Assembly (NCBI RefSeq): GCF_044704955.1
Contig: NC_091997.1
Location: 42,222,001-42,286,000, forward strand
Direction: 5' to 3'
Length of the DNA stretch: 64,000 nt
DNA from: Pristiophorus japonicus
Lineage: Eukaryota
Within the stretch, counting starts at the first letter, position 1, and each line of letters opens with the position of its first letter. The position numbers were made by a program, and so were the translations under genes. Of this stretch, positions 173-63,587 are shown in pieces. The notes under the pieces were generated by a model. That model was given only the letters and a program-made list of their open reading frames with translations. It had not been told where the DNA came from and did no database searches.

Positions 173-182
173 GAAAGTGAAA
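173..182 (+). promoter_or_regulatory. IRF-binding element (GAAAGTGAAA) upstream of IFN-A1
   Basis: Matches the IRF-E consensus GAAANNGAAA about 270 nt upstream of the ATG; conserved in A2. Confidence 0.65.
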
Positions 183-443: not shown

Positions 444-1963
444 ATGCTTTTTCCGAGTGTCGGGAGACTCTGGATTTTGTTAGCCTTGTTGCCCGGGACC
501 CTGAGCCAGGACTGCCAGAGGCTGCGGTTACTTGAAGAGATTAATAATGAGGCTCTCCACGTCCTGCGTGAAATGGTGAGTTTATCGGTGATCCGGCGAT
601 TTGAGTGACCAATCTTAACCACTCGTTTCTCGGGATAATTTCCTGTCGGGGAAATTCTGAGATTGAATCGTTATTATTACAAACTGCATCAACCGATATG
701 GAATATTTCATTGGCGGAATTCACATTGACGTATTAAAATAACGGCGAAATTGTGCAGAAACCGTTTAATATTTTGTATAAAGAGTGATTGATTCGTTTA
801 GACGGTTAGTTAAATATACGAGAGCTAAAATCTTTAAACAAATTGTTTAATGACAACGAATGATTGCAGCGGTTTTCAGGGAAACATTTCTGAGAGTAAG
901 TAGCGATTGTGAAGCATGTGCCCGGAGCCGGTTCTGACAGTCACTCTCTCCTGTTGCAGGGAAAGCCCTTTCCACTCCAGTGTCTATCAGAAAGGGCATC
1001 ACTGAGCAACAATTCCCTGAACATACACCAGCTCAGCAACAGGGTACAGGTGAGTGCACATTGTACATTGGGTAATCATTCCGCTAATGTGGCCAGGAGC
1101 AATCACCGTGTGGGAAATATATTCACATTAACAAAATAAAACGAACGTGAATCATTTTTAAAGTGAGCGCGTTACTTTAATCATTTTAATAAGGCTAAAA
1201 ATTTAATGTTCGGCAACACTCTGCGGAATGGTTTGTCTACTTGAACGAATGAGTTAGTCTGCTAAGAAAAATGGGATAACTAACCCACAGCGGAATATGG
1301 TAGGAACCAATTAGTTGTTAACATAGTAATATGACCAACAACAATCTCCATGCTCTGGTTTTAAATACAGACACTTTAAATATTTGCATCGACAGATGAC
1401 CATTCAATTAAGATATAGCTGAGCTGCGGTGATTGGCTGTGAATTTTGACCTATCACGAGCTGGATAAATGGGAACAGATCCCCTCTGATGACATTGTGT
1501 GTGTTTTGCACAGAGCCAGGACAGGATCCAGATTGTCCATCAAACACTGCGTCACCTCACTAAGATCTACAGCATGAACCTGGGTTCGGTCACATGGTCC
1601 CGGGACAAAGTGGAAACCTTCCGTCTGCTCCTGGATGGGCAGGTCGGGGAGCTGGAAGAATGTGTCCGGAAACCGGGCTCAGACTCCAGGCCGAGGAGAT
1701 TCTCCTCCATTAACAAATACTTTAAGAAACTGAGAATGTTTCTCGAACAGAAGGTGCGACAATTGATATTTGACTGTGTGATTACTGACATGTACCTCAT
1801 TTCCCACCATTTAAATCTGTTTATTCTCTCATGGATTTTCCTGAATATTTCTCTTTTTCAGACATTCAGTGACTGCGCCTGGGAAATAGTCCGCGTTGAG
1901 ACCAGGGCCCGTTTACAACAGATTCGTACCATAATGGGGAACATTAGAAGAGATTTTCCATAG
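444..1963 (+). CDS. IFN1: Type I interferon, subtype A copy 1; intact, 187 aa; exons 444-575, 960-1049, 1514-1753, 1862-1963
   Basis: ATG at 444 starts signal peptide MLFPSVGRLWILLALLPGTLSQD|C. All introns are GT..AG, phase 0. Four Cys (DCQRL, LQCLSE, EECVR, SDCAWE), YFKKL helix and the type I IFN CAWEIVRVE motif; stop TAG at 1961-1963. The symbol is family-level only. Confidence 0.93.
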
Positions 1964-2510
1964 ACATGTTTAGTAGAGACTGATATTGGTGATTATGTAT
2001 TTAGAAATGCTTGAATTGTATCTTAAGTGTTGCTCTGTTGTTCAACCAACCACACAATGCAGCAAAAAAGACTAGAGGAACCGAAAGCTTTCCCAATGAT
2101 ATATTTAATAGAGACTGAGAACATTGATTTACTTTTTACATTGTTTCGTCAAAGGAAAAAATATTTATTATAACATTATTCATGGCAAAATACACGAATT
2201 GAAAATATTTATTTTGTTTTGAAGATACTTGGTGCACGACAGAAATGCTCATTGTGTATGTATCTGTCGATATATATATATATAAAGCACATACCGTTGT
2301 ATAAGTTGATAAGCCATGTTTATTCAAATAGTTTCGTACGAAATTACAGTTAAACCATAAACATTTTGTACGTTGATCACTTTTATGAAGTGGCTCTAAC
2401 TTTACAACAGTGTTTGTATCTTTGGTCTGTTTATGTGCGGTGAAATGGCAGACAAATAGAAGTTGACATTTAATACAGAAATGTGGAAAACTATAAAATT
2501 CCCTCCCGAA

Positions 2511-2660
2511 AACTCTCTCTCTATTTCTCTCTCCTCTCTCTCTTTGACCCCTGTCGTAATATCTCCTTTGTCCAATTTTGTTTGGTAACACTTCCGTGAA
2601 GCGCCTTGCGACGTTTGACGAGGTGAAAGGTGCTATATAATACAAGTTATTGTTGTGACG
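2511..2660 (+). mobile_element. L2-type LINE/SINE 3' end fragment
   Basis: gtgaagcgccttgcgacgttt...aaaggtgctatataatacaagttattgttg is a typical L2 tail. The segment 2511-2918 is absent from the A2 flank. Confidence 0.55.
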
Positions 2661-4009
2661 TATTTTCGGAGGAAGAATGAGAGGAAACATAATCAAAATA
2701 GCACAATTTGAAAGGGGATGCAGGAACAGAGGGCTGGATTTTGCAGGGGTCAGTGGGCACGATCGGTGGTGGGTCGGATGGGAAAGTGTTTTTCCCCAAC
2801 AGGTCGAGAGCCCTCTGTGATCCACCATCCATGCGCCTTTACCAAATCATAATCATTAGTGGCTTGTTTACAGTCACTTATCAATGTTTTTTTTTCGTCA
2901 TTTCTGCTCCCCAGGTGTCAACACTTTAACTCGTCTCATGTCTTCCTAATTTATTGACATTTATAGTTGTGATCTCTTCATATAATTAAAAATTGCAGTT
3001 TAATAAAATGCGTAAAATGAAAATCAAAAGACGTGTTAATTTATTGGTATTGATTAAGAGTTGGGAATAGACAATGTTTTTCTAAACTGGAAACATTTTA
3101 TACTAGATGAAAACATGTTCGTGTAAATAAAATGTTTTCAATATTACACTTTTACTGGAGTAATATTTATTCCTCATTTGTGTCTGTCAGTTTTCCACAC
3201 TGACTATAAATTCTCTGGATTGCCACACCTGCTGCCTGTTACTGGGACACCCTCTCCGCTCTATGCTCCTCTCTCCAATGCCCGCTTGTTCCTCATCAGT
3301 CAAAACTCTGAATCATTTTTGAACCCAACTTTAGGCCCAATTTTCCATCTCCGAGACAGTACCACTGTTTTACTTTTCTGCTATCCAACTGAGTATTCTC
3401 ACTCCACACCATTGTCTCCAGTGCAAGATTGTGAAGACACAAAACAACACACTCATGGACAAAGGCTGCAACCATATCATAACAGCTGACTTATCAAAAT
3501 AGAATTACAAATGTTGAGCAATTTTCAATAGTAAAAGCTGGGAAAAAAACGTAATCAGAACTTGTGAGATTTGTGGCTTAAAGATTAGTTATTCTACCGT
3601 GATCTTTTATATGGTAGCTTACATGGGCCAGTGAACCGACACTGTTGCTGTATTTGCAAATCCTACCCCTTAATCTTTCCACGACCCATTCACCAACCTA
3701 CCACGCGCTCACACCCAACAACAGCCCGACATCGTTACCATTACTTTTTCTGAGCCAGTGGCCAGTTTGCGACCGTCAAGTTCACATGGGCAAGACCTAT
3801 TGTAAATGTTAGTATTGGACTTTACAATGGGAGAAAGTTAGGTCAAATAGTGTGACACAAACGTGACATCAGGAAGTCAGTCTGTGCAGAAGGCAATGTG
3901 CAAGGCTCTAAGATTATTATTTATTATAGATTAATGTGTTGTTACAATTACTTACTATTTCCCTTTATGTTTCCCACCAGTATTTACCATATACTGTAAT
4001 AGAATCATT

Positions 4010-4520
4010 GAATCATAGAACGATGCAGCAGACAATGAGGCCGTGCGGCCCATCATGTCTGTAACGGATCTTTGAAACAGCTATCCAATTAATCTCCTCC
4101 CCCTGCTCCTTCCCCAGGGTCCAGCAAATTCCCCCTTCAAGTATTTCTCCTATTCCCTTTTGATCATTATTATTGACTCTGCTTCCGCCATCCTTTCAGG
4201 CCGTGCATTCCAGATCAGATCAAGAATAAATGTCTGATCCTCACATCTCTGGATAAGACCATAAAACATAGGAGCAGGAGGAGGCCATCCGGACCCCGAG
4301 CCTGCTCCACCATTCAACAAGCTCAGAGCTGATCTTCTCCCTCAACCCCACTGTCCAGCCCTATCCCCGGCGCCCTTAATTCCCTTCGTGTCCAACAATA
4401 TAGGAAGATAAGAACTAGAAGCAGGAGTAGGAGAAACAGGAGCAGGAGTAATTATCTTAAATCTGTGCAGTCCGGATACTGACCCTTCTGCCACAGGAAG
4501 CAGCTTCTCCTTATTTACCG
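4010..4520 (-). mobile_element. Stacked degenerate CR1 3'-end fragments
   Basis: CR1 tail motifs (atcatagaa; cataaaacataggagcaggaggaggccat) on the minus strand. Confidence 0.55.
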
Positions 4521-4910
4521 AGAAAAACTATTTTCCCCCAAGCTCCCTAATTTGACTTTCGCATCAGTTCTATATTTTTAAAAATCATTCTTACAACATT
4601 CTTCAGCATAGATTATAATTATAGGCATAATTTGCAATGTTACTTTTATCTGAACTCTCCCTCTCACCTTCGCCCCCCAGCCTCGGATGTTCAATGAAAT
4701 ATGCCCAAACTAAAAGATTTGATGAAAAGATTCTCACCAGCACACGATCTCTGTAAGTTGCTGCAATCTAATTGTTTAACTGAGGCGTCAATAACTGGCT
4801 GCCGCTGTCTGCACCTAGAGCTCCTGGGATCTCAGTCCCAGAGCCAGTCGGCGGGAGTTTTTGTTCGCGATAACAGCTGAGAGTGATTCTGTGACATTCC
4901 CTGTGTAACC

Positions 4911-5043
4911 GGGGAAATCCCGGATATCCCAAACATTTCCCAGCTCCCCCTCCCCCTCTCCGTGTGAGCCGGTCTGTTTACACACAATCTTCACTTTCGG
5001 AAATGACAAAACTCGTCACTTTCACTGAGACACTTTCGCTTTC
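4911..5043. promoter_or_regulatory. Distal NF-kB + IRF cluster upstream of IFN-B1
   Basis: GGGGAAATCCC at 4911-4921; TCACTTTC at 4991 and 5016; CACTTTCGCTTTC at 5031-5043 (GAAAGCGAAAGTG on the minus strand). Confidence 0.65.
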
Positions 5044-5617
5044 GGTGAAATTGACACAAGGCTCATTTCCAGAGAGAAACTGACACGGACACTTTCCCGG
5101 GAGAGAGACAAGAAAGAAACGGCGAAAGAAAAGGCATCGGGATCATGTTCGGACTCAGAGTCGAAGCGGATTCAATATTCTTTAAAACAAAATCTCAAAA
5201 TGACTCCAAGAAAAAGCAAAGAAATGAGAAATAACTTCGACTTAAAGACCAGAGTCTCGGACAGGGGACTCCGGGCGAGGACAGCGGGCATCAAGCGGTG
5301 CCCTGGGCTGTGAGCCGGGCTCTCTGCGATGTTCAAGCCGCGAAGTGTGAACAGTCCCAGCGCGATGTGAGCACACCGGGGAGAGAGTGGATTTAAAATG
5401 GAGCAGCTGTCTCTGGAGCCGAATGTCAGCATTAAAATCCGCGGCCTCGAGATTCCCGCTGTCCGTGTCACTGTAATCCGGATTATAAAATACAGCCCCC
5501 AACATATGTCCACACTCCCCCAATACAGAGCCTCCCTCTGCACAACCTTAGTGCCCCGGGGGCCCGAATCTACACAACACGGAGCTGAAGCCGAGCGCTG
5601 GGTGGGATCTTCTGTGT

Positions 5618-5740
5618 GGGATTTTCCAGTCGCTGCTTCAGGAATCTCCAGGTTTTGGATTCCTCACCTCAGACAAAAACCGCACAAACTATTGCTCTCC
5701 TGCCGCTCTTCCAAAACTCCTGCAGCCCGATTTCACTTTT
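5618..5740. promoter_or_regulatory. Proximal NF-kB (GGGATTTTCC 5618-5627) and IRF-E (TTTCACTTTT 5731-5740) sites of IFN-B1
   Basis: Consensus matches in a GC/CpG-rich region before the ATG; both retained in B2. Confidence 0.55.
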
Positions 5741-5971
5741 GGAATGTAATGCCACCCATTGAAGCCGGCAGCATGGCAGTGTCCGCTCCCAGCAGTGTCC
5801 AGCCGCACTCCCACATAACTCGGCAACACAGGCGGCCGCTCCCGGATCACAAGCCGCTGCATTTCTACTTCCAGACTTTCATTCGGTGACAAGAACCGTT
5901 TTCGGAGCTGAGCCCGGATCCGCTCGGCTTCTGATCCTTCAAATCGGTACTTTACCCTGGGTCGGTTGAGT

Positions 5972-8900
5972 ATGGCTTTGTCGAGTGTTTGGAGATGTTG
6001 CGTTGTGTTGGTCTTGTTGCTCGGGACCCTGAGTTTGGGCTGTGAGAGGCTGCAGTTACAGCAAATTCTAAACACACACACACTGAGCAAACTGAATGAA
6101 ATGGTGAGTTTAACCTGCATCCCGAGCCGGATCCGATGCACACAGGGGCTGTTTGTTGTGAAAAGTCAGATATGGGGAGATAGTTTGGAGTTTTATAACT
6201 GTATCAAATTAACAGTCACTGACGCTCCAGTATTGCTGTGTCTCGGGTTGTCAGTAACGGCGATTATCTTCTGTCTCAGGGCGGTCGCATCCCCCGACAG
6301 TGTGTAAGAGAGAGACTCTCGCTGAAAACCAAGCCCTTGAATCTGGTGAAACTTTCGGAGGGATTGCCGGTGAGTGTTGTTTTATTTTATTCAAACTCGA
6401 ATTTTATCGAAAGTATGAGTAAGTTCAACATCCGGGCCAGAAGTTTAATCAGGAAATTAAAATCCAATGTTTGCCGCCCATTGATGTGGAAGGAGAACTA
6501 TCTCACTCTCCAACTATGTCACTCTCTCTAACTATCTAATTCGTTAACTCGCTCATGTACTTTCACTGTCATTCTCTCAAATTATCTCATTCACTCAAAC
6601 TATCTCACTCACTCTAGCTATCAAACTCCCTCTAACTATCCCAATCTCGCTATCGCACTCACAATCTCACTCCATTTATTTATCTTATTCCATCCAATCA
6701 TCTCACGCCCTCTATTCACTTAACCCAGTATAATCTGCTTGCTCCCATAACAAACTGCTTCCCAGTCACTGTCTCACTTCCTCTTATCATTTCACCACCT
6801 CCATCTCACTCACTGTAACCATCTCACGCCTTCATTTCACGCCCTCTGATTATCTGATTCACTGAAATCTTCTCAACATCTCTAATCATCTTGTACCTTG
6901 TGTCTATCTTAATCCCTGTAACCATCTGCCTCCCTCTAACCTTCTCACTCCGGAGCTATGGTGATAATTGTGAGGTTTGCCCGATTCCGGGCTGGTTAAA
7001 TCATAGAGTCATGTAATGATACCGCACAGAGGGCAGTCATTATGCCCATCGTGCCTATGTGACCTCATTGCAACAGCTTTCCAATTAATCCCACTAACCT
7101 GCCCACTCCTCAGAGACGTATACATATTTCCCCTTCAACTATTAAATCATAGAAGCATATAAATATCCAGCACAATAGGAGGCCATGCGGCCCATCGTTC
7201 CTTTGCCAGTTCTTTGAAAGAGCTATACAATTTATCCCATACCCCTGCTGTTTCCCAATAACCCTGCACAGTTTTCCGATTGAATTATTTATCCAAATTC
7301 GTTTTGAAAATTATTGAATGTGCTTCCACCAACCTTTCAGACAATTTATTGCAGATCTAACAAATCGCTGTGTAAAGGAACTATCCGTCATCACACCTCC
7401 AATTCTTTTGCCAATTACCAACTGTGCCCTCTTGTTGCTGATTCTTCTACCACTAGAAACAGTTCTCTTTATTTAGCCTATCACTCATCATCATCGGTGG
7501 TCCCTCGAACGAGGATGACTTGCTTCCACATGGGTTCACAGATGTTTCAATGAAGAACCCGATGTTCCAGTCCTGAACTCCAATTGAAGGGGTGGAAGAG
7601 GCCTGTGCGTGGATTTTTTTAACGTGTGATGACCGTTGCACATCAGCCACCACACGGGCTTGACATAGCCTTTATCCAGTGGCAAGGGTTAACCAGGACG
7701 ACTGAAGATGTGCTTTGCTGCACGGACCTAGTGTGCACACATATCGCAGTGTGGGCTGGCCAGTGCTGCCCCTGGGCTTCGGCTTTTCTGGGACCTGTAC
7801 CCTCATTTGCCGCACCTCCGCCATGATCTCTCACTGCTCCTCTGCCACGATCTCTCGCCGCTCCTCTGCCAAAAACATTAACTGCACTTCCGCTACGATC
7901 TCAGCATTCCTCCGCCATGATCTCTCGCCATTCCTCCGCCACAAACATTCGCTGCACCTCCGCCACGATCTCTCACTGTTCCATCATCATGATCTCTCAC
8001 AACTTCTCTGCTACAAACACATTCGCAGCACCTCCACCACAATCTCTCACCGTTCATCCACCCCTACCTTCCCGCTCCTCCACTGTACCTTGGCCCCACC
8101 GATGTTCCTGCCCACCATATCACTATTCTACCATCATCAACTCTCTCCTTTACTGCATCAAAGAACTCAATGACGTTAATCAAACATGATTTGCATTTAA
8201 CGAATCCCTTCTACCTGTCATTTATTAAAACCCATTTTCTCAAATTGAGAATTAATTGTGTATTGATTTATTGTCTCGAATACATATCCGATCCCCCAGT
8301 GTTAAACTGACTGGCCTGTATTTGCTGGCATTTTGTAGTCTCGTTTTAAACCCTATAGCTTTAATCGTCCAGGGAGAAGTAGATTTGCAGCCCCTTCCTT
8401 TCGCCTCGAAGGATTGTGCCTAGAGTGCATCCAAACTATGCTCACCATGAAGGCCTCCCATTGCTGATTCAAAGATTTACCTGCAAATATTTGATTAAAA
8501 TCCGCATGGGTCAGAACCTCTTTCTGGGTTCTGAAATTAGCCCTCCTCCAGTTTAATATTTTCACCTGTCATTGTTGCTGGTCCTTTCCCATAAATACTC
8601 TAAACCTAAATGGGAACAAATCCCCTCTAATGACATTCTATTTTGCACAGAGCCAGGACAGGATCCAGATTGTCCATCAAACACTGCGTCACCTCACCAA
8701 GATCTACAGCATGAACCTGGGCTCAGTCGCATGGCCCCGGGACAAGGTGGAAACCTTCCGTCTTCTCCTGAATGGGCAGCTCGGGGAACTGGAAGAATGT
8801 GTCCGGAAACCGGGTTCAGTCTCCAGGCCAAGGAGAAACGCCTCCATTCACAAATACTTTAAGAAACTGAGAAAGTTTCTCAAACAGAAGGTGGGACAAT

Positions 8901-9109
8901 TGATATTTGACTGTGTGATTACTGACATGTAGCTCATTTCACCCCATTTAAATCTGTTCATTCTGCAATGGATTTTCATGAATATTTCTCTTTTGCAGAG
9001 ATTCAGTTACTGCGCCTGGGAAATAATCCGGGCTGAAACGAGGGCCCGTTTACAGCAGATCCTTTTCATCACGGCAAAAATCAGAAGAGAAATTCAAGAT
9101 TTTCCATAG
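5972..9109 (+). CDS. IFN1: Type I interferon, subtype B copy 1; intact, 190 aa; exons 5972-6103, 6280-6369, 8651-8890, 8999-9109
   Basis: Exon translations MALSSVWRCCVVLVLLLGTLSLG|CERLQ...NEM / GGRIPRQCVRE...GLP / SQDRIQ...KFLKQK / RFSYCAWEIIRAE...QDFP*. Canonical splice sites; exon sizes 132/90/240/111; no lesions. The symbol is family-level only. Confidence 0.93.
6500..6950. repeat. Degenerate pyrimidine-rich low-complexity repeat in IFN-B intron 2
   Basis: Repeated ctctctaactatctcact-like units; copies at about 39280-39730 and 43460-43930. Confidence 0.6.
7486..8117 (-). mobile_element. Bipartite RTE-derived non-autonomous element (SINE-like) in IFN-B1 intron 2
   Basis: (TCA)n tail at the left end; RTE 3' end fused to RTE 5' UTR/ORF-start sequence. 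TSD TATCACT at 7479-7485 and 8118-8124; empty site in B3 at 44457-44463. Confidence 0.8.
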
Positions 9110-33638: not shown

Positions 33639-35168
33639 ATGTTTTTTCCGAGTGTCGGGAGACTCTGGATTTTGTTCCTCTTGTTGCCCGGGACCCTGAG
33701 CCAGGACTGCCAGAGGCTGCGGTTACTTGAAGAGATTAATAATGAGGCTCTCCTCGCCCTGCGTGAAATGGTGAGTTTATTCGGTGACCCGGCGATTAGA
33801 CTAACCAATCTTAACCACCAGTTTCTCGGGATAATTTCCTGTCGGGGAACGGCTGAGATTGAATCGGTTTTATTACAAAATGCATCAACCGATATGGAAT
33901 ATTTCATTGGTGGAATTCACATTGATGTATTAAAATAACGAAGAAATTGTGCAGAAACCGTTTAACATTTTGTATAAAGAATGATTGATTCCTTTAGACG
34001 GTTAGTTAAATATACGAGAGCTAAAATCTTTGAACAAATTGTTCAATGACAATGAATGATTACAGCCGTTTTCGGGGAAACATTTCTGAGAGTAAGTAGC
34101 GATTGTGAAGCATGTGCCCGGAGCCGGTTCTGACAGTTACTCTCTCCTGTTGCAGGGAAAGCCCTTTCCACTACAGTGTCTATCAGAAAGAGCATCACTC
34201 AGCAACAATTCCCTGAACCTGCACCAGCTCAGCAACAGGGTACAGGTGAGTGCACATTGTACACTGTGTAATCATTCCGCTAATGTGGCCAGGAGCAATT
34301 ACCGTGTGGAAAATATATCCACATTAACAAAATAAAACGGACGTAAATCATTTTTAAAGTGAGCGCATTACTTTATTCATTTTAATAAGGCTAAAAATTT
34401 AGTGTTAGGCAACACTCTGCGGAAAGATTTGTCTACTTGAACGAATGAGTTAGTCTGCTCAGAAAAATGGGATAACTAACCTACAGCGGAATGTGGTAGG
34501 AACCAATTAGTTGTTAACACAGTATTATTACCTGCAACAATCTCCATGCTGTGGTTTTAAATTCAGTCACTTTAAATATTTGCATCTACAGATGACCATT
34601 CAATTACGATATAGCTGATTGCGGTGATTGGCTGTGAATTTTGTCCTATCACGAGCTGGATAAATGGGAACAAATCCCCTCTGATGACATTGTGTGTGTT
34701 TTGCACAGAGCCAGGACAGGATCCAGATTGTTCATCAAACACTGCGTCACCTCACCAAGATCTACAGCATGAACCTGGGCTCAGTCACATGGGCCCGGGA
34801 CAAGGTGGAAACCTTCCGTCTGCTCCTGGATGGGCAGCTCGGGGAGCTGAAAGAATGTGTCCGGAAACCGGGCTCAGACTCCAGGCCGAGGAGATTCTCC
34901 TCCATTAACAAATACTTTAAGAAACTGAGAATGTTTCTCGAACAGAAGGTGGGACAATTGATTATTTAACTGTGTGATTACTGATGTGTCGCTCATTTCA
35001 CCCCATTTAATTCTGTTCATTCTCTAAAAAATTTTCCTGAATATTTCTCTTTTTCAGACATTCAGTGACTGCGCATGGGAAATAGTCCGCGTTGAGACCA
35101 GGGCCCGTTTACAACAGATTCGTACCATAATGGGGAAAATTAGAAGAGATAAACATTTACATGTTTAG
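33639..35168 (+). CDS. IFN1: Type I interferon, subtype A copy 2; intact, 190 aa; exons 33639-33770, 34156-34245, 34709-34948, 35058-35168
   Basis: Close paralog of 444-1963 with the same exon 1-3 sizes, splice sites, 4 Cys and CAWE motif; C-terminus IRRDKHLHV*. Confidence 0.92.
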
Positions 35169-38748: not shown

Positions 38749-41700
38749 ATGGCTTTGGCGAGTGTTTGGAGATGTTGCATTGCGTTGGTCTTGTTGCTCG
38801 GGACCCTGAGTCTGGGCTGTGAGAGGCTGCAGTTACAGCAAGTTCTCAACACTCGCACTCTGAGCAAACTGAATGAAATGGTGAGTTTAACCTGCATCCC
38901 GAGCCGGATCCGAACCACATAGGGGCTGTTTGTTGTGAAAAGTCAGATGTGGGGAGATAGTTTGGGGTTTTATAACGTTATCAAATTAAAAGTCACTGAT
39001 GCTCCAGTATTGCTCTATCTCGGGTTGTCAGTACCAGCGATTATCTTCTGTCTCAGGGCGGTCGCATCTCCTGACAGTGTGTAAGAGAGACTCTCGCTGA
39101 AAACCAAGCCCTTGAATCTGGTGAAACTTTCGGAGGGATTGCCGGTGAGTGTTGTTTTATTTTATTCAAACTTGAATTTTATCGAAAGTATGAGTAAGTT
39201 CAACATCCTGGCCAGAACTTTAATCAGGAAATTAAAATCCACAGTTGGCCACCCATTGATGTGAACATGGAAGGAGAACTATCTCACTCTCTCCAACTAT
39301 GTCACTCTCTCTAACTATCTAATTCGTAAACTCGCTCATTTACTGTCACTGTCATTCTCTCTAATTATTTAATTCACTCAAACTATCTCACTCACTCTAA
39401 CTATCAAACTCCCTCTAACTATCCCAATCTCACTACCTCACTCTATCTCACTCCCATTAATTATCTTATTCCATCTAATCATCTCACGCCTCTCGTCACT
39501 TAACCCAGCATAATCTGCTTGCTCCCATAACAAACTGCTTCCCAGTCACTGTCTCACTTCCTCTTATCATTTCACCACCTCCAGCTCACTCAATGTAACC
39601 CATCTCACGCCTTCATTTCACGCCCTCTAATTATCTGACTAACTGAAATCTTCTCAACACCTCTAATCATCTTGTACCTGATGTCTATCTTAATCCCTGT
39701 AACCAACTGCCTCCCTCTAACCTTCTCACTCCGGAGCTATGGTGATAATTGTGAGGTTTGCCCCATCCCGGGCTAGTTAAATCATAGAGTCATGTAATGA
39801 TCCCGCACAAAGGGCGGTCATTATGCCCATCGCGCCTATGTGACCTTATTGCAGCAGCTTTCCAATTAATCCCACTAACCTGCTCACTCCTCAGAGCCAT
39901 GTACATATTTCCCATTCAACTATTAAATCAAAGAAGCATATAATGATCCAGCACAATATGAGGCCATGCGGCCCATCGTTCCTGTGACAGTTCTTTGAAA
40001 GAGCTATAACAGTTACCCCACACCCCTGCTGTTTCCCAATAACCCTGCACAGTTTTCCCATTGAATTATTTATCCAAATTCGTTTTGAAAATTATTGAAT
40101 GTGCTTCCACCAGCCTTTCAGACAGTTTATTGCAGATCTAACTAATCGCTGTGTAAAGAAACTATCCGTCATCACACCTCCAATTCTTTTGCCAATTACC
40201 AACTATGCCCTCTTGTTACTAATTCTTCTCCCACTAGAAGCAGTTTTCTTTATTTAGCCTATCACTCATCATCATCGGCAGCCCCTCGAACGAGGATGAC
40301 TTGCTTCCACATGTGTGCACAGATGTTTCAATGAAGAACCCGATGTTCCAGTCCTGAACTCCAATTGAAGGGGTGGAAGAGGATTGTGCGTGGATTTTTT
40401 AACGTGTGATGACCGTTGCACATCAGCCACCACACGGGCTTGACAGAGCCTTTATCTAGTGACAATGGTTAACCAGGATGACTGAAGACCTGCTCTGCTG
40501 CACGGACCTAGTGCGCACACATATCGTAGTGTGGGCTGGCCAGTGCTGCCCCTGGGCCTCGGCTTTTCTGGGCCCTGTACCCTCATTTGCCGCACCTCCG
40601 CCACTTCTCACTGCTCCTGTGCCACGATCTCTCGCCGCTCCTCTGCCACAAACATTAACTGCACTTCCGTTACGATCTCAGCATTCCTCCGCCATGATCT
40701 CTCGCCACTCCTCTTGCCACAAACATTCGCCGCACCTCCGCCACGATCTCTCACCGTTCCTTCATTACGATCTCTCACCGCTTCTCTGTCACAAAAACAT
40801 TTGCAGCACCTCCGCCACAATCTCTCATGGTTCATCCACCCCTACCTTCCCGCTCCTCCAGTGTACCTGCGCCCCGCCGATGTTCCTGCCCACCATATCA
40901 CTATTCAACCGTCATCAACTCTCTCCGTTACTGCATCAAAGAACTCAATCAAGTTAATCAAACATAATTTGCCTTTAACGAATACGTTCTACCTGTCATC
41001 TATTAGCCAATTTTCTCAAATTGAGAATTAATTATGGATTGATTTATTGTCTCGAATACATATCCGATTCCCCAGTGTTAAACTGACGGGGCTGTATTTG
41101 CTGGGTTTTTGAAGTCTCGTTTTAAACCCTATAGCTTTAATCGTCCAGGGAGAAGTAGATTTGCAGCCCCTTCCTTTCCCTCGAGGGATTGTGCCTAGAG
41201 TGCATCCAAACTATGCCCACCATGAAGGCCTCCCATTGCTGATTTAAAGATTTACCTGCAAATCTTTGATTAAAATCCACATGGGCCAGAACCTCTTTCT
41301 GGGTTCTGAAATTAGCCTCCTCCAGTTTAATATTTTCACCTGTCATTGTTGCTGGTCCTTTCCCGTAAATACTCTAAACCTAAATGGGAACAGGTCCGTT
41401 CTAATGACATTCTATTTTGCACAGAGCCAGGACAGGATCCAGATTGTCCATCAAACACTGCGTCACCTCACGAAGATCTACAGCATGAACCTGGGCTTAG
41501 TCGCATGGCCCCGGGATAAGGTGGAAACCTTCCGTCTTCTCCTGGATGGGCAGCTCGGGGAACTGGAAGAATGTATCCGGAAACCGGGCTCAGTCTCCAG
41601 GCCAAGGAGAAACGCCTCCATTCACAAATACTTTAAGAAACTGAGAAAGTTTCTCAAACAGAAGGTGGGACAATTGATATTTGACTGTGTGATTACTGAC

Positions 41701-41883
41701 ATGTAGCTCATTTCACCCCATTTAAATCTGTTCATTCTCCAATGGATTTTCATGAATATTTCTCTTTTGCAGAGATTCAGTTACTGCGCCTGGGAAATAA
41801 TCCGGGCTGAGACGAGGGCCCGTTTACAGCAGATCCTTTTCATCACGGCAAAAATCAGAAGAGAAATTCAAGATTTTCCATAG
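38749..41883 (+). pseudogene. Type I interferon subtype B copy 2, probable pseudogene; exons 38749-38880, 39057-39144, 41425-41664, 41773-41883
   Basis: Paralog of B1. Exon 2 has CGA>TGA at 39072-39074 and a 2-nt deletion in the (AG)n run (88 nt versus 90). Exons 1, 3 and 4 and all splice sites are intact. Confidence 0.88.
40266..40895 (-). mobile_element. Bipartite RTE-derived element, duplicated copy in IFN-B2 intron 2
   Basis: Same insertion site and sequence as 7486-8117. Confidence 0.78.
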
Positions 41884-43124: not shown

Positions 43125-46100
43125 ATATGGGGAGATAGTTTGGAGTTTTATAACTGTATCAAATTAAAAGTCACTGGTTCTCCAGTATTGCTGTGTCTCA
43201 GGTTGTCAGTAACAGCGATTATTTTCTGTCTCAGGGTGGTCGCATCCCCCGACAGTGTGTAAGAGAGAGGCTCTCGCTGAAAACCAAGCCCTTGAATCTG
43301 GTGAAACTTTCGGAGGGATTATAGGTGAGTGTTGTTTTATTTTATTCAAACTCGAGTTTTATCGAAAGTATGAATATGTTCAACATCCGGGCTAGAACTT
43401 TAATCAGGGAATTTGATTCCAGTGTTGGCCGCCCATTGATGTGAAGATGGGAGGAGAACATTTCATTCGCTCTTTGTCACTCTCTCTATCTAAATCTCGC
43501 CAACTCTCTCATTCTCTTCAACTATGTCACTCTCTCGATCTCATTCATTAACTCGCTGATTTAGTTTCACTGTCACTCTCTCTAACTCAAACTATCTCTC
43601 TCACTCTAACTATCAAGCTCCCTCTAACTATCTCAATCTCACTACCTCACTTACTATCTCACTCCTTTTAACAATCTTATTCCATCTAATCATCTCACAC
43701 CCAGTATATTCACTTAATCCAGTAAAATCTGCTTGCTCCCATAGCAAACTGCTTCCCAGTCACTGTCTCACCACCTCTATCTCATTCATTGTAACCATCT
43801 CACTCCTTCATTTCACGCCCTCTAATTGTCTGACTCACTGAAATCTTCTCAACACATCTAATCATCTTGTACCTGGTGTCTATCTTAATCCCTGTAACCA
43901 TCTGCCTCCCTCTAACCTTCTCACTCCGGAGCTATGGTGATAATTGTGAGGTTTGCCCGATCCTGGGCTGGTTCAATCATGGAGTCATGTAATGATACCA
44001 CACAGAGGGCGGCCATTATGACGATCGTGCCTATGTGGCCTCATTGCAACAGCTTTCCAATTAACCCCACGAGCCTGCCCACTCCCCACAGCCGTGTACA
44101 TATTTCCTTTTCAGCTATTAAATTATAGAAACATATAATCATCCAGCACAATAGGAGGCCATACGGTCCATCGTTGCTGTGCCAGTTCTTTGAAAGCGCT
44201 ATAAAATTCATCCTATACCCCTGCTGTTTCCCAATAGCCCTGCACAGTTTTCCCTTTAAATTATTTATCCAACTTCTTTTTGAACGTTATTATTGAATCT
44301 GCTTCCACCAGTCTTTCAGACAGTTTATTGCAGAACTAACAAATCGCTGTGTAAAGAAACTATCCGTCATCACACCTCCAATTATTTTGCCAATTACCAT
44401 CCGTGCCTCTTGTTACTGATTCTTCTGCCACTTGAAGCACTGCTCTTTATTTAGACTATCACGATTCTACCGTCAACTACTCTCTCCATTACTTCATCAA
44501 AGAACTCAATCAAGTTAATCAACATGATTTGTCTTTAACAAATCCCTGCTAGCTGTCATTTATTAACCCATATTTCTCAAACTGACAGTTAATTATGTCT
44601 TGAATTATTGTCTCAAAAACTCATCCGACCCCCAGCGTTAAGCCAACTGGCCTGTAGTTTCTGGCATTTTGTTGTTTCCTTTTAAACCCTATATTTTTAA
44701 TCGTCCAGGGAGATCTAGATTTGCATGCCCTTCCTTTCCCCCTCGTGGGATTATATCTCGACTGCATCCAAACTATGTCCACTTTATATGAATATAAGAA
44801 CATAAGAAATAGGAGCAGGAGTAGGCCATTTGGCCCCTCGAGCCTGCTCCGCCATTTAATAATATCATGGCTGAACTGATCATGGACTCAGCTGTAATTC
44901 CCTGCCTGCTCCCGATAACCCTATACTCCCTTATTGCGCAAAAATCTGTCTATCTCCGCCTTAAATACATTCAATGACCCAGCCTCCATAGTTCTCTGTA
45001 TCAAAGAATTCCATAGATTTGCAACCCTCTGAGAGAAGAAATTTCTCCTTATCTCAGTTTTAAATGGGCGGCCACTTATTCTAAGACTGTGTCCCCTAGT
45101 TTTAGTTTCCCCTATGAGTGGAAATATCATCTCTGCATTCACCCGGTCGAGCCCGCTCATTATCTTATTTGTTTCAATAAGTTCACCTCTCATTCTTCTG
45201 AACTCCAATTTGTACAGGCCCAACATACTCAACCTATCATCATATGTCAACCCCCTCATCTTCAGAATCAACCTAATGAACCTTCTCTGAACATAGAAAC
45301 ATAGAAACATAGAAAATAGGTGCAGGAGTAGGCCATTCGGCCCTTCGAGCCTGCACCGTCATTCAATGAGTTCATGGTTGAACATGCAACTTCAGTACCC
45401 CATTCCTGCTTTCTCGCCATACCCCTTGATCCTCCTAGTAGTAAGGACCTCATCTAACTCCTTTTTGAATATATTTATTGAATTGGCCTCAACAACGTTC
45501 TGTGGTAGAGAATTCCACAGGTTCACCACCCTCTGGGTGAAGAAGTTTCTCCTCATCTTGGTCCTAAATGGCTTACCCCTTATCCTTAGACTTTGACCCC
45601 TGGTTCTGGACTTCCCCAACATTGGGAACATTCTTCCTGCATCTAACCTGTCTAAACCCGTCAGAATTTTAAATGTTTCTGTGAGATCCCTTCTCATTCT
45701 TCTGAACTCCAGTGAATACAAGCCCAGTTGATCCAGTCTTTCTTGATAGGTCAGTCCCGCCATCCAGGGAATCAGTCTGGTGAACCTTCGCTACACTCCC
45801 TCAATAGCAAGAATGTCCTTCCTCAAGTTAGGAGACAAAAACTGTACACAATACTCGAGGTATGGCCTCACCAAGGCCCTGTACAACTGTAGTAACACCT
45901 CCCTGCCCCTGTACTCAAATCCCCTCGCTATGAAGGCCAACATGCCATTTGCTTTCTTAACCGCCTGCTGTACCTGCATGCCAACCTTCAATGACTGATG
46001 TACCATGACACCCAGGTCTCGTTGCACCTCCCCTTTTCCTAATCTGTCACCATTCAGATAAGAGTCTGTCTCTCTGTTTTGTAACCAAAGTGGATAACCT

Positions 46101-47630
46101 CATAGTTATCCACATTATACTTCATCTGCCATGCATTTGCCCACTTACCTAACCTATCCAAGTCACTCTGCAGCCTCATAGCTTCCTCCTCGCAGCTCAC
46201 ACTGCCACCCAACATAGTGTCATCCGCAAATTTGGAGATACTACGTTTAATCCCCTCGTCTAAATCATTAATGTACAATTAAACAGCCTCCAATGCAAGT
46301 ATATCCTTCCTTAGATACAGAGACAAAAACTGTACACAGTACTCCAGGTGTGGCCTCACCAATACCCTGTACAGTTGTAGCAGAACTTCTATGCTGTTAT
46401 GCTTTATCCCCCTTGCAATACCTGCATTACTTGCTGTACCTGCATACTCACTAATTGTTTTTCATGCACAAGGACCACCAGGTCTCTCTGTACTGCAGCA
46501 CTTTGCAATTTTTCTACATAATTTGCTTTTCTGTTCTTTCTTCGAAAGTGGATCACCTCATATGTTGCCACATTATACACCTTTGCCAAATTTTTGCCCA
46601 TTCACTGTGCCTATCTATATCCCTTTGCAGATTGTTTGTGTCCTCCATACAATTTGCTTTCCCACCCATCTTTGTATAATCAGCAAACTTAGCTACATTA
46701 CACTCGGTCCTTTCAGCCAAATCATTAATATAGATTGTAAATAGTTGTGGACTCAGCAACGATCCCTGCGGCATCGTCACTATTTGCCAACCGGAAAACT
46801 ACCCATTTATCCCGACTCTCTGTTTTCTGTGAGTGAGCCAATCCTCTATCCATGCTAATATATTATCCCCAACCCCAAGAGCTTTTATCTTGTGCAGTAA
46901 CCTCTTATGTGGCACCTTATCGAATGCCTTCTGGAAATCCAAATACAACACATCTCCTGGTTCCCTCTTATCCACCTTGCTCGTTAAATCTTTAACAAAA
47001 CCCAGCAAATTTCTCAGAAAGATTTCTCTCTTTGAAGGACTCCCATTGCTGATTTAGCATTTTACCTGTGAATCTTTGAATAAAATCCACATGGGCCAGA
47101 ACCTCTTTCTGGGTTCTGAAATTTTCCCTCCTCCAGTTGAGTAGTTTCACTTGGGACTGTTGCTTGTCCTTTCCCATAAATACTCTGAACCTATATGGGA
47201 ACAGATCCGCTCTAATGACATTCTATTTTGCACAGAGCAAGGACAGGATCTAGATTGTCCATCAAACACTGCGTCACCTCACCAAGATCTACTGCATGAA
47301 CCTGGGCTCAGTCGCATGGCCCCAGGACAAGGTGGAAACTTTCCGTCTTCTCCTGGATGGGCAGCTTGGGGAGCTGGAAGAATGTGTCCGGAAACCGGGC
47401 TCAGTCTCCAGGCCGAGGAGAAACGCCTCCATTCACAAATACTTTAAGAAACTGAGAAAGTTTCTCAAACAGAAGGTGGGACAATTGATATTTGACTGTG
47501 AATACTGACATGTAGCTCATTTCACCACATTTAAATCTGTTCATTTTTAATGGATTATCCTGAATATTTCTCTTTTGCAGAGGTTCAGTGACTGCGCCTG
47601 GGAAATAATCCACGCCGAGACCAGGGCCCA
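43125..47630 (+). pseudogene. Type I interferon subtype B copy 3, 5'-deleted pseudogene; exon 2 43235-43324, exon 3 47236-47475, truncated exon 4 from 47581
   Basis: Homology starts in mid-intron 1, with no promoter or exon 1. In-frame TAG at 43322-43324 and at 47251-47253. Exon 4 (RFSDCAWEIIHAETRA) loses homology at about 47630. Intron 2 is expanded by CR1 insertions. Confidence 0.9.
44788..47030 (-). mobile_element. CR1 insertion in IFN-B3 intron 2, with a second CR1 nested at about 45289-46280
   Basis: Two CR1 tails: (aacataag)n near 44795 and (aacataga)n near 45290. The host CR1 resumes at aacagcctccaatgc near 46282. Absent from the B1 and B2 introns. Confidence 0.85.
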
Positions 47631-48126
47631 TATACGTTTCTTGAAATGGAACAGAAAATGTTTTTTTAATGAATCTGTTTTCATTGATTTTAAATAAATC
47701 TACGTCAATAATTTCTGCCTCGCATGCTTTATGAAAACGTATTTATTTCTCCTGCCTGTAAATGCATTTGGTTTTGCCATTTTTATTATAAATACTTTTG
47801 ATTCTCTCACACACTCAAATGATCAAGCTCCCAATCTACTAATTCTGTCATTCAGCAGCATTAGTTTGGTCTTTCTATTCCTCAATATCTCTGATTGCCA
47901 CTTCCAACAGGATAAAGAGTGTCAGAGATTGGAGATTTGACTGCCCTGGTCATGGTCATCAGAGACATCCTTTGTCACAGAGACATTCTGCCCATCTTTG
48001 TCCTCCTTGACCTCTCTGGTGTGTGCTATATGATCTACAACTCCATCGTTTTTCACCATTTCTCCTCAGTGATTCACCTCTGTGGCACTCTCCTGGCTTG
48101 GCCCCGCTTCTACATGACCAATGCAC

Positions 48127-49495
48127 TTCCTAAAATGGCTTCTCTCTCCAGCCAAGTATAGTCACTTTGGGTATCCCTTAAGATACTTGCCCATTCTTTG
48201 TCTAAATGCTTCCCTTTGGTAACATCATTCTTTCACGTAGGGTCAACTTCCTTATGTGTGCTGTTGAACTTGGGCTATGGCCCTCCACCGTCGCCCTCAA
48301 TTCATGGGCCACCACTGTACCATCTGACAGTAAATGAAGGGTGAGCCAGAATTGTTCCCAACTCAGGACCAGCAAAGCCAAAGCCACCCTATTTAAATCA
48401 CACCAAAAACTCTATACCTGGTCCCAATTTCATCCGCCTCCCTGGCAGCTCACTCAGGCTGAATCCAAACATGTGACTTGTCTGTGATCTATTTGACCCC
48501 GAGTTCAACTTCAATCCCAAAATATTATCTCGCACAGGAATGCCTTTAGCATTGCAGCATAATTTCACTCTACTCCTAGCTCTTCTCCCGCCCCCACTCA
48601 CCATTGTCAATGAAACATGGCAGTCGGAAGATGGGAGTTCATGAGGCGAGTGACCAATAAAGGCCCAACAGTTCGAGGAGAGCAGCGGCAGTCGGGAGGC
48701 GGGAGTTCGTGAGGCGAGTGGCCTACAAAGGCCCAACAGTTCGAGGAGAGCAGCAGCAGTTGGGAGGTCAGCCGGTGCAGCTGCGGCTGGGAGAGAAGGC
48801 AAAAAGAAATAGAAAGAAATCGAAAGGAGACGTCACAGCCAAGAGGATAAGTGATTGGCTGGTGATTGGTGAGAAGATTTTCTTTTCTTTTCTTTATCAG
48901 TAAGTAATGTTTAGCATTATTGTTGCCAAATTAAGATAATCTAAAGGTAAAATCATGGCAGGAGAGCTCGGACACGTGTTATGCTCCTCCCATGCTATGT
49001 GGGAAGTCAGGGACGCTTCCAGTGTCCCTGACGACTACATGTGCGGGAAGTGCATCCACCTGCATCTCCTGACAGACCGAATTGAGGCTTTGCCACCCAT
49101 GGTGCCATGAACTTGGCTGCTGCTGCTCTTCCCTGATGAGTCATCCCCCTCAACAGTAACCAAAGAGGTGTATCTGTTTTGCAGGGTGATGAAATTGGGG
49201 CCAGGTATAGAGTTTTTGGTGTGATTTAAATAGGGTGGCTTTGGCTTTGCTGGTCCTGAGTTGGGAACAATTCTGGCTCACCATTCATTTACTGTCAGAT
49301 GGTACAGTGGTGGCCCATGAATTGAGGGCGATGGTGGAGGGCCATAGCCCAAGTTCAACAGCACACATAAGGAAGTTGACCCTACGTGAAAGAATGATGT
49401 TACCAAAGGGAAGCATTTAGACAAAGAAAGGGCAAGTATCTTAAGGGATACCCAAAGTGACTATACTTGGCTGGAGAGAGAAGCCATTTCAGGAA
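48127..49495. repeat. About 308-bp inverted repeat (arms 48127-48434 and 49188-49495)
   Basis: The arms are near-identical reverse complements; ORFs 48202-48387(-) and 49235-49420(+) translate almost identically. Confidence 0.9.
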
Positions 49496-52400: not shown

Positions 52401-53062
52401 GCAGGTACTGCAGGCAGTGAAGAAGGCAAATGATATGTTGGCCTTCATAGCTAGGGGATTTGAGTATAGGAACTGGGAGGTCTTACTGTAGTTCTACAGG
52501 GTCTTGGTGAGGGCGCACCTGCAATATTGTGTTCAGTTTTGGTCTCCTGATCTGAGGAAGGACATTCTTGCTATTGAGAGAATGCAGACTGATTCCCGGG
52601 ATGGCTGATCTGACATATGTAGAGAGACTGGATCAACTGGGTCTTTTTACATTGGAGTTTAGAAAGATGAGAGGGGATCTCATAGAAACATATAAGATTC
52701 TGACGGGAATGAACAGGTTAGATGCGGGAAGAATGTTCCCGATGTTGGGGAAATCTAGAACCAGGGGACACAGTCTTAGGATAAGGGGTAGGCCATTTAG
52801 GACTGAGATGAGGAGAAACCTCTTCACTCAGAGAGTTGTTAACCTGTGGAATTCCCTGACACAGAGGGTTGTTGATGCCAGTTCATCGGATATATTCAAG
52901 AGAAAGTTAGATATGGCCCTTACAGCTAAAATGATCAAGGGGTATGGAGAGAAAGCAGGAAAGGCGTACTGAGGGAATGATCAGCCATGATCTTATTGAA
53001 TGGTGATGCAGGCCAGAATGGCTGAACGGCCTACTCGTCCACCTACTTTCTATGTTTCTATC
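48618..53062 (+). mobile_element. Full-length CR1 LINE (5' UTR repeats, ORF1 zinc finger/leucine zipper + esterase, ORF2 endonuclease-RT), decayed, ORF1 rearranged
   Basis: ORF1 ATG at 48955 (MAGELGHVLCSS...CGKC); esterase at 49515-49990; endonuclease from 50214; RT; tail ttctatgtttcta. Same family as 16044-19625. Confidence 0.92.
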
Positions 53063-62880: not shown

Positions 62881-63587
62881 CTTTGTGTAGTGCGTGTCAT
62901 TATTTGCAGAACCACAATGCTGCAGAACACTGACACGACAACTGTCAAAATGAATCTGGTCATGGTCTCTTTAAGGAAACTAGCTGATGGCATTTCATCA
63001 AATGACGTTATCAGACCCGGTTCCTTTTAATTGGCTGTGTACCTCGTAGGGCGGGCTTAACAATTGTAATCTCGGGAAGATTCTTTTCACGGTGCGGACT
63101 GGAGCCAGGAGCGGAGTCGCAACAGGCCACCGACCCCGGTCATCCCGGACCCGCCATGGTTGGCGAAATCGCGGCCTTAGTGTCTACATGTAGTATCTGG
63201 AGTCATTCTTGCCTTCAGGTATCTGCAGGTTCGGGACTTTGGTACACTGAGTTTATTAACATGGTACTTCACTTGGGATAACACAAGCAAATAGGAACTC
63301 CCTATACATGCAGTTCTAAAAATTCCCTCAACTTCCTGAAGTATTCCTGAATTTCCTAATTTTCAGAGTCTAACAGAGTCCCAGGGCACGGCACTGACTG
63401 AAAGTCTTGTTGATTTGATCCAATGTTTAACGGATAACCAGGATTTGTCTTTGACCTGTAAAATACACACAGTTACTTCCCGGGGAAACTTGGCACTATT
63501 CAGAAGGTTAAATATCTTCGACCTCAATATTATTTATACTTTTAAAAGGCAACAAGCAAGGCACAGCTAGAACAGAAAGAAAAAAAG

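Follow-up and report, generated by a model that had tools for sequence, protein, structure and literature searches.

The A and B genes of the sawshark (Pristiophorus japonicus) type I interferon array appear to be ancient four-exon subtypes in which a tract of ~450 nt was overwritten by non-allelic gene conversion, separately in several shark lineages. The exchange would be conversion between neighbouring tandem genes, and it would set two predicted IFNAR2-binding faces, with their promoters, on a shared predicted IFNAR1-binding face. We hold this explanation, history and receptor step together, to be likely. The conversion history of the tract, argued from sequence comparisons, is very likely; the receptor-based reason for the tract, argued by analogy, is a tentative proposal, a little more apt to fail than to hold.

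Two subtypes and a shared tract in the sawshark array

The window, a stretch of 64,000 nt, is part of an array with 34 copies of the shared block, built of near-identical repeats of ~80 kb. The genes are type I interferons in sequence and fold: PF00143 (interferon alpha/beta domain) was present in 24/24 hits, and all 19 PDB sequence matches were named interferon (best E 1.7e-16). The structure model (mean pLDDT 81.5) had carp IFNa, human IFN-beta and zebrafish IFN1 as its top fold matches, with a long unbroken last helix (H158-185); in the A1 model, exon 3 holds helices H75-92, H104-125 and H138-153. Four exons are separated by three phase-0 introns, and a four-exon organisation has been described for cartilaginous-fish type I IFN genes (PMC5332411). 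Mature-peptide cysteines C24, C52, C124 and C159 occur in both A1 and B1, and C52 is missing from three open B copies. A search for exon 1 of B3 found none. Exons 1-2 of the broken C-type gene lie just beyond the end of the window.

Table 1. Interferon genes and gene parts in the window
Feature	Position	Strand	Description
A1 exon 1	444..575	+	signal peptide and helix A; subtype-specific
A1 exon 2	960..1049	+	AB loop; subtype-specific
A1 shared tract	1466..1923	+	~48 nt at the 3' end of intron 2, then exon 3 and intron 3, then ~60 nt at the start of exon 4
A1 exon 3	1514..1753	+	aa 75-154; helices B, C, D (structure model)
A1 intron 3	1754..1861	+	108 nt, GT..AG
A1 exon 4 to stop	1862..1963	+	helix E; 3' third A-specific
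B1 exon 1	5972..6103	+	subtype-specific
B1 exon 2	6280..6369	+	subtype-specific
B1 shared tract	8607..9059	+	
B1 exon 3	8651..8890	+	
B1 intron 3	8891..8998	+	108 nt
B1 exon 4 to stop	8999..9109	+	
A2	33639..35156	+	A1 duplicate; reading frame open; C-terminal tail differs
B2	38749..41883	+	B1 duplicate; exon 2 broken (88 nt, stop)
B3	43235..47635	+	partial B copy; stops in exons 2 and 3; exon 4 shortened
Third-type (C) interferon exon 3 remnants	63311..63462	-	broken gene

An earlier reading made from the letters alone had reported that two unlike gene fronts lead into a near-identical module, and most of its measurements were reproduced. The A1 and B1 proteins (P0001 and P0003 in full) agree at 20/44 aa (exon 1), 12/30 (exon 2) and 70/80 (exon 3), exactly as counted there; exon 3 is identical at 221/240 nt, and intron 3, put at about 90% identity, matches at 98/108 positions. 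Similarity does begin at 1466 and 8607. Upstream of it the genes part company as claimed: the 450 nt upstream agree at 55.0%, against 55.7 +/- 2.0% in shuffles; intron 1 is at chance level (68% versus 66 +/- 3% in gapped global alignment) and gave no match in a local search; and of intron 2 only the last ~48 nt align. Immediately before the ATG, the 5' UTRs match weakly (60 nt, 72%, E 5e-4).

The downstream limit is where the sequence-only reading went too far. It had near-identity running through exon 4 to the stop; exon 4 agrees at just 81/99 nt and 21/33 aa, and its first 60 nt hold 8 of the A1/B1 differences, the following 30 nt another 10. When 15 A copies are set against 17 B copies, 8 near-fixed differences cluster within one 30-nt window of exon 4, and because of this cluster we place the end of the near-identical tract near 1921-1923 in A1 and 9059 in B1. 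The proposed common "helix B-E scaffold" thus stands for helices B-D and the first half of helix E, and fails at the end of helix E, which is subtype-specific.

Synonymous sites follow the same division. Between A1 and B1 they differ at 28/53 sites in exons 1 and 2 and at 8/56 in exon 3 (Fisher p 3e-5). The A-B dS for exons 1-4 is 0.65, 1.3, 0.13 and 0.32, the exon 3 value being the same as that between B copies (0.13). Similar dS in all exons would speak against exchange; dS instead differs by exon.

Within the sawshark array the exchange looks like one sweep before array expansion with re-divergence afterwards. The A and B tracts are now 8-12% different. Exon 3 has zero near-fixed A/B differences over nt 1-186, and intron 3 has one among 106 sites (dxy 0.12). 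In the shared module tree the sawshark A copies form one clade (100/99), and polymorphisms shared by A and B number only 3 in exon 3 and none in intron 3; frequent neighbour-to-neighbour conversion was thus not seen in the sawshark. The "recurrent" conversion originally proposed is borne out when lineages are compared, and probably also inside the array of the sevengill shark, but not inside that of the sawshark. The last sawshark sweep would predate most of the array expansion and probably ran from B to A: exon 3 sites such as nt 104 and 154 link all A copies with 5-6 B copies, a weak indication given B clade support of 25/0. Outside the array, at a distance of 13 Mb, a further B gene joins B in exons 1-2 (100/100); its exon 3 is more distant from A and B (0.14, 0.15) than these two are from each other (0.11).

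After the sweep, A would have fixed new residues. Seven, in helix D and early helix E, are fixed on the sawshark A line, five of the changes being at the start of helix D or inside it; one aligns with what we take to be Arg120, an IFNAR1 contact of human IFN-alpha2. All 8 near-fixed coding differences in the tract alter the protein, against 1 intronic difference, which is no more than suggestive of positive selection on the sawshark A stem (Fisher p 0.037, with approximate site counts and a comparison chosen post hoc). The fixed changes in helix D sit in the supposed shared IFNAR1 face, and to that extent count against a receptor reading.

Subtype histories across sharks and rays

Both N-terminal types are present in six shark orders and in rays. 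Species besides the sawshark enter these comparisons as annotated proteins, a level that carries neither introns nor dS and at which models from tandem arrays may be stitched. The exons 1-2 protein tree splits 13 A rows, from sharks and rays, from 28 others (100/100), and same-species A+B clades are rejected in this region (p 0.004 and 5e-5). The exons 3-4 tree, in which 20 of 38 inner branches lack resolution, instead joins sawshark A to sawshark B (100/95) and sevengill shark A to its own B (95/90), and a single A clade is rejected (AU p 0.003). Exon 3 alone gives a matching outcome, as does a mixture model on 19 rows. The subtype label undergoes at least three changes on starred branches of this tree, and two same-species clades are starred. 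Separate trees, the check proposed with the original reading, thus group exons 1-2 by subtype and exons 3-4 by species in at least two lineages; together with the exon-wise dS, this conflict supports gene conversion or an equivalent exchange between two old subtypes. Sliding windows and AU tests accompanied the split trees.

Exon 3 is not merely slow: B orthologues from different orders diverge by 0.28 there, as against 0.14 in the mature part of exon 1 and 0.31 in exon 2. In exon 3, A and B are 0.19 apart when taken from the same order and 0.27 when taken from different orders, a gap that exons 1-2 do not show. Measured to the nearest B of the same species and the nearest foreign A, exon 3 of A lies at 0.12 and 0.24 in the sawshark, 0.00 and 0.15 in the sevengill shark, 0.15 and 0.19 in the horn shark, and 0.07 and 0.09 in the basking shark. 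The species' own B is not nearest in 8 of the 12 species with both types, and for 6 of those 8 the nearest A belongs to a close relative (same order, or among rays). At the protein level, columns not shared by A and B number 10-16/30 in exon 2 and drop to 0-9/80 once exon 3 is reached, in all 7 sharks tested; the right-hand limit of the tract, seen at this level, varies among sharks.

One A and one B protein of the sevengill shark are identical at 80/80 positions in exon 3 and at 44/74 in exons 1-2, and the exon 3 sites that differ between its two A proteins (3/3) are also variable among its B proteins, suggesting recent or ongoing exchange. Rays, with exon 3 of A at 0.44-0.54 from their own B, and carpet sharks, at 0.33-0.38, appear to have had no recent exchange, which would have stopped there long ago. 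These two groups and the seven residues fixed on the sawshark A line make "constant" the wrong word for the C-terminal half. Subtype C adds a second kind of sharing: in the sevengill shark it matches B at 35/43 aa in exon 1 and 35/77 in exon 3, and since C has B's exon 1 but not its exon 3, B is intermediate between A and C.

Predicted receptor faces and competing explanations

In human structures, helices B-D form the IFNAR1 face, and by analogy exon 3, which encodes these helices in our model, would be the IFNAR1 face in sharks; the subtype-specific parts would be the predicted IFNAR2 face. Receptor family scans found a four-gene cluster on C11, the first gene of which is annotated IFNAR2-like in four sharks. 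The IFNAR2-like exon has 5 other genome matches at 37-56% identity, the best of which contains a stop. At least one clear IFNAR2 gene is present in the sawshark genome, and the single clear hit weighs against the receptor step. A teleost-like arrangement, with a separate IFNAR2 paralogue for each subtype, was considered and is not supported by this minimum count; two IFNAR2 copies have been reported in the elephant shark (PMC5332411).

The preferred explanation would work as follows. The tract would persist as the sole long unbroken homology between A and B, a fused exon of 240 nt, a short intron and an exon. Conversions confined to it would be tolerated or favoured, since both subtypes must fit one IFNAR1, and conversions that also took in helix A, the AB loop or the final part of helix E would wipe out the subtype differences in IFNAR2 binding. 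A shared IFNAR1 face is nonetheless not required, because rays and carpet sharks keep both subtypes without homogenisation. The same conversion history also has a neutral version, compatible with the preferred explanation and disputing only its receptor step, which we think has a substantial chance of being right, if short of even. The tract would then be the only place where length and similarity suffice for recombination, exons 1-2 would have escaped after their introns diverged, and the match to a receptor face would be a by-product of exon layout. The tract limits, near splice sites and where alignable DNA ends, fit this version, as do the shortness of exons 1 and 2 (132 and 90 nt, with flanking introns unalignable between A and B), the complete escape of rays and carpet sharks, and the post-sweep changes in sawshark A, which are amino-acid changes and point to selection against sameness. 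Against it, the right limit lies inside exon 4 though the genes remain homologous as far as the stop and, weakly, in the UTR, and the A-specific signal at the end of helix E persists in several orders.

Accounts that dispense with conversion fare much worse. A single chimeric origin (for example, B as a C-type front with an A-type back), followed by strong purifying selection on exons 3-4 and no later exchange, could draw on the intermediate position of B, with its exon 1 in common with C, and on the greater conservation of exons 3-4 than of exon 2 among A orthologues; it may describe how B first arose. As a full account it is improbable: it yields neither species-specific shared residues nor same-species clades, the exons 3-4 trees, which reject a single A clade, contradict it, and it fails on the sevengill 80/80 identity and the sawshark's 91% intron identity and dS of 0.13. 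Convergence of A and B toward each species' receptor, with intron 3 as a regulatory element, is more improbable again. Within any one species A and B presumably meet the same receptors, and the comparisons outside the sawshark are at the protein level only, but in the sawshark the sharing extends to synonymous sites and to intron 2 at its 3' end. Nor is intron 3 unusually constrained: B copies diverge by 0.083 in it versus 0.068 in intron 1, the distant B gene is separated from B by 0.20, and C-type intron 3, aligned to that of A and B, gave no match beyond the 5' edge.

Near-identical ~80-kb repeats can mislead assemblers, and an assembly chimera was recognised from the start as a threat to the original reading. 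An assembly or annotation artefact is nevertheless very hard to credit. A exons 1-2 lie upstream of the block in 14 A copies, and intron 2 measures 450-466 nt in 13 of these; one contig of a public DNA run (a single sample, possibly the assembly's own) spans 900-1531 unbroken, across the junction of A intron 2 and the tract; and further contigs depart from the A sequence at 1466 and 1923 into B-type letters. The A and B tracts also differ, by the 8-12% given above, and the pattern recurs in other species.

A broader version of the preferred explanation, which we consider unlikely, sees an exon-level mix-and-match system following receptor geometry. Loss of intron 3 would have fused the whole IFNAR1 face into one exon, providing an extended substrate for conversion; from the shark-ray split onward, this face would have been repeatedly re-synchronised between subtypes, co-evolving with IFNAR1 as a single unit. 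A subtype would be defined by its promoter and IFNAR2 face (exons 1 and 2 with the last part of exon 4), with the back common to A and B, exon 1 common to B and C, and tract limits set by selection.

Relation to known systems

Judged from its sequences, the shark A/B pattern is segmental concerted evolution of the kind seen in mammalian TLR1/TLR6, likewise old tandem immune paralogues, whose N-terminal part groups by orthology and whose C-terminal region, as a result of independent conversions, groups by species, an arrangement proposed to hold surfaces for shared partners in step (PMC2077338). Unlike those receptors, shark A and B are secreted cytokines in a large birth-and-death array; their tract takes in an intron and has its limits close to splice sites; and exchange would have stopped in rays and carpet sharks, while a third subtype shares exon 1 instead. 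The mosaic pairs BMP8A/B, DDX19A/B and TUBG1/2 also combine exon-intron-exon near-identity with paralogues older than the species compared (PMC2720389). Their converted introns have raised GC, whereas sawshark intron 3 is the most AT-rich of the introns (GC 0.33-0.36, versus 0.38-0.45 in introns 1-2), and a signature of GC-biased conversion sought in it was absent; GC3 is 0.67-0.70 in exon 3 and 0.58-0.62 in exons 1-2. The mosaic pairs show no clear domain overlap, whereas the shark tract matches one structural face, and the word "interferon" is absent from the main text of that study. Our literature search, with a coverage that ended short of mammalian IFN-alpha conversion studies, returned no report of segmental concerted evolution for interferons.

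Cartilaginous-fish type I IFNs have been described with four exons, three introns, four cysteines, tandem clusters and lineage-specific expansion, as here, and earlier work weighed whole-gene birth-death against concerted evolution with elephant shark and catshark data (PMC5332411, PMC6640115). As far as the cited portions of those papers go, they contain neither two N-terminal subtypes nor an exon-wise conflict; "exon" and "recombination" are absent from the main text of PMC6640115, where type I interferon phylogeny is known to be unresolved and the choice between the two modes is argued from whole-protein trees. In sharks both modes would hold, for different exons of one gene. Because exons have split histories, whole-gene trees would conceal two or three subtypes that date back at least to the shark-ray split, making ancient subtypes resemble species-specific expansions.

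Teleost group I and II IFNs have CRFB5 (IFNAR1) in common and differ in the use of CRFB1 or CRFB2, the IFNAR2 paralogues (PMC8980424, PMC8863823). The two groups thus diverge on the IFNAR2 side and have the IFNAR1 chain in common, which is what is predicted for shark A and B. The teleost groups have unequal cysteine numbers, whereas both shark subtypes have four, and teleosts have two IFNAR2 genes to the one clear IFNAR2 of the sawshark. The shark array would offer natural chimeras separating two predicted receptor-binding faces, and rays and carpet sharks natural controls in which exchange stopped; together they make selection for shared-partner co-evolution testable, a question that TLR1/TLR6 left open. 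Linkage to growth hormone and CD79 was looked at through a single putative somatotropin-family exon, which lies on the same contig, at ~170 kb from the distant B gene; the array is 13 Mb away from it.

A shared exon 3 tract in otherwise divergent interferon subtypes

Pfam and PDB sequence matches, the predicted fold and four cysteines concur in marking A1 and B1 as type I interferons, and their translations are the database proteins P0001 and P0003, which carry the UniRef name interferon alpha-21-like, Pristiophorus japonicus. Their layout is the known cartilaginous-fish form, in which the ancestral gene's intron 3 is lost (PMC5332411). The first 10 kb of the window is duplicated downstream at 91 to 92%, yielding A2 and B2, and there is a partial B3 as well.

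The A/B mosaic is well supported as real. Recalculated A1-B1 identities matched the sequence-only reading exactly (20/44, 12/30, and 70/80 amino acids in exons 1 to 3; 98/108 nucleotides for intron 3). Intron 1 and the promoters, described there as unalignable, matched at shuffle level, and the onset of similarity near 1466 and 8607 was reproduced. Near-identity "through the stop" proved too wide a claim: it holds for the start of exon 4, but that exon is identical at 81/99 nucleotides overall. Across 15 A and 17 B copies, a sliding window found no near-fixed difference in nucleotides 1 to 186 of exon 3 and six in the remainder of that exon. Intron 3 had a single one, and exon 4 had two within nucleotides 1 to 60 and eight within nucleotides 61 to 90. 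Class-level A-B dS for exons 1 to 4 was 0.65, 1.3, 0.13, and 0.32, values based on only 20 to 56 synonymous sites per exon; synonymous divergence differed between exons 1 plus 2 and exon 3 (p 3e-5) and less clearly between exons 4 and 3 (p 0.06).

Searching genome DNA with this block returned 40 matches, 34 of them strong copies and six weak matches to a third subtype, C. All but one omitted fragment were annotated (33/34), giving 15 A and 17 B genes in mostly alternating order at 41.72-42.27 Mb of contig C21, plus one further B at 28.46 Mb. Open frames with normal splice sites were found in 11/15 A and 5/18 B copies; 13/18 B and 4/15 A copies (C21:41.72-42.27 Mb) are broken or incomplete, and three open B copies lack Cys52 and five helix C residues. 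In public DNA runs, one contig spans the junction between A intron 2 and the tract, and at 1466 and 1923 others depart from A, carrying B-type letters. Because the three public runs represent one sample and the junction contig differs from A1 at 38/634 letters, it supports the A-type architecture rather than the exact A1 copy.

Features of the window, the array and related loci (plain positions refer to the window; C21, bearing array and window, and C11 are contigs of the sawshark genome, G000; L numbers are locus handles)
Feature	Position	Strand	Remarks
IRF-element-like match	173-182		A promoter, ~271 nt upstream of ATG; consensus match only
A1	444-1963		four exons, GT..AG phase-0 introns
NF-kB-like match	5618-5627		B promoter, ~354 nt upstream of ATG; conserved in distant B gene; consensus match only
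B1	5972-9109		four exons, GT..AG phase-0 introns
C-terminal overruns	1950-1963, 9090-9109		same three final residues
Retroelement fragments	10100-33100, 44400-61000		dense; LINE-like and integrase-bearing
Repeated block	12-21 kb, 48-60 kb		partly inverted, 80-89% identity
Broken interferon copy	63311-64000 + L055:1-339	minus	B-like exon 1; C-type intron 1, exon 2, exon 3 remnants
Distant B gene	G000:C21:28452398-28462172 (L053, L054)		lone, intact, 13 Mb from array
Higher-order repeats	G000:C21:41.73-42.05 Mb		four, ~80 kb, B-A-B-A, near-identical genes
Orphan B-type exon 1 copies	G000:C21:41730893, 41769107, 41812433	opposite	without exons 2-4; further repeats through array
Tandem C-type exon 3 copies	G000:C21:42301635-42366728 (L056-L058, L085-L089)		nine, at 42.30-42.36 Mb; mostly ~7.25-kb spacing, several with identical translated exons
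Divergent interferon exon 3	G000:C21:42385586-42385831 (L059)		fourth type, array's edge, 44% to A1
Class II cytokine receptor cluster	G000:C11:97137286-97506388 (L061-L084)		IFNAR2-like gene, then three more

Exon histories across sharks and rays

Aligning 118 annotated proteins, the sole cross-species data, and hand-picking 41 to cover species and types gave trees that differ by exon. In the exon 1-2 tree, a set of 13 A rows covering six orders of sharks plus three rays was separated from all B and C rows (100/100). This tree partly restates its labels, since types were assigned from the N-terminus; a split at this level spanning sharks and rays places the A-B divergence before these lineages parted. 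In exons 3 and 4, subtype labels were scattered, with seven changes for A, and sawshark A joined sawshark B (100/95) as sevengill A joined sevengill B (95/90). A single A clade was rejected there (AU p 0.003), as were same-species A plus B clades in exons 1 and 2 (p 0.004 and 5e-5), p-values that are rough given short alignments and single constrained searches; many other branches lacked support. The outcome held when only exon 3 was used (33 rows) and under a mixture model (19 rows).

Exon 3 is not intrinsically slow, since B orthologues differ between orders by 0.28 there versus 0.14 in exon 1 and 0.31 in exon 2. A-B distance in exon 3 was below the between-order mean (0.27) in 5/6 orders (0.05-0.23), with carpet sharks as the one exception (0.38); in rays it was 0.44-0.54. 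One A and one B protein of the sevengill shark are identical across exon 3 (80/80), and each of the three sites at which its pair of A proteins differs there is also variable in its B proteins.

Exon-level exchange is probably wider than A and B alone. C grouped with B in the exon 1-2 tree and has a B-like exon 1, while its exon 3 is distant from both; sevengill C and B agree at 35/43 amino acids of exon 1, compared with 35/77 of exon 3. The broken copy at the window's right edge joins an exon 1 88.6% identical to B1 to a C-type remainder, possibly through B-to-C conversion. The sevengill shark also has C, and one catshark protein, judged by eye, is of this type.

Timing and direction within the sawshark array

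All 15 A copies formed one clade in the module tree on a short stem of 0.024 (100/99); for exons 1 and 2, the branch between A and B is 0.47. In exon 3, just three sites vary within both classes. Exons 1 and 2 of the distant B gene are B-type, but its exon 3 lies 0.14 to 0.15 from either class, versus 0.11 between A and B, and in intron 3 this gene and B are equally far from A (0.12). The simplest reading of these sequences would be a single or final sweep near the onset of array expansion. With the A-specific part of helix D removed, the tree supported neither an A-B split nor a direction of conversion. Near-fixed coding differences within the tract are all protein-changing (8/8), affecting residues 137, 138, 141, 149, 152, 164, and 166, where most A proteins of other sharks, judged by eye, have the B-like state. 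This hints that sawshark A may have re-diverged under selection after the sweep (post hoc p 0.037).

The ~80-kb repeats either expanded very recently or stem from the assembly. Upstream of its single set of exons 2 to 4, the distant B gene has at least four tandem exon 1 copies at ~2.6-kb spacing, and a somatotropin-family exon lies ~170 kb away. Array A and B proteins overrun the stop position of other sharks, A with a 9-nucleotide gap; the usual stop is retained in a single B of the array and in the distant B gene.

Proposed receptor and homology accounts of the tract

Whole-gene conversion is known among mammalian IFN-alpha genes and is briefly mentioned in PMC6640115. The A/B mosaic works like segmental conversion in mammalian TLR1/TLR6 (PMC2077338) and like long-lived mosaic gene pairs (PMC2720389). 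Its mechanism is familiar, and its occurrence in interferons apparently new: a literature search covering a minority of subscription journals found no earlier report of an exon-wise interferon mosaic. The leading study on how shark interferons evolved weighs birth-death against concerted evolution of whole genes and, as far as its available text goes, does not separate exons (PMC6640115).

In the predicted model, exon 1 forms helix A, exon 2 the AB loop, exon 3 helices B, C, and D (75-92, 104-125, and 138-153), and exon 4 helix E. We infer a receptor logic behind the mosaic, in which the exchanged tract would be the IFNAR1 face and the subtype-defining parts the IFNAR2 face and promoter. Conversion would be possible because the only long block of homology runs from exon 3 across the short intron into exon 4, and would be tolerated or favored because the two subtypes depend on a common IFNAR1. 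Three points speak against this reading: sawshark A has diverged again in helix D, both rays and carpet sharks do without exchange, and receptor searches of the sawshark genome found only one clear IFNAR2. Any subtype difference would then concern affinity or expression and not the choice of receptor. A neutral account, with the tract set by homology length and not by selection, is roughly as probable.

The three genes following the IFNAR2-like gene on C11 presumably correspond to IL10RB, a two-domain IFNAR1, and IFNGR2 with duplicated first-domain exons.
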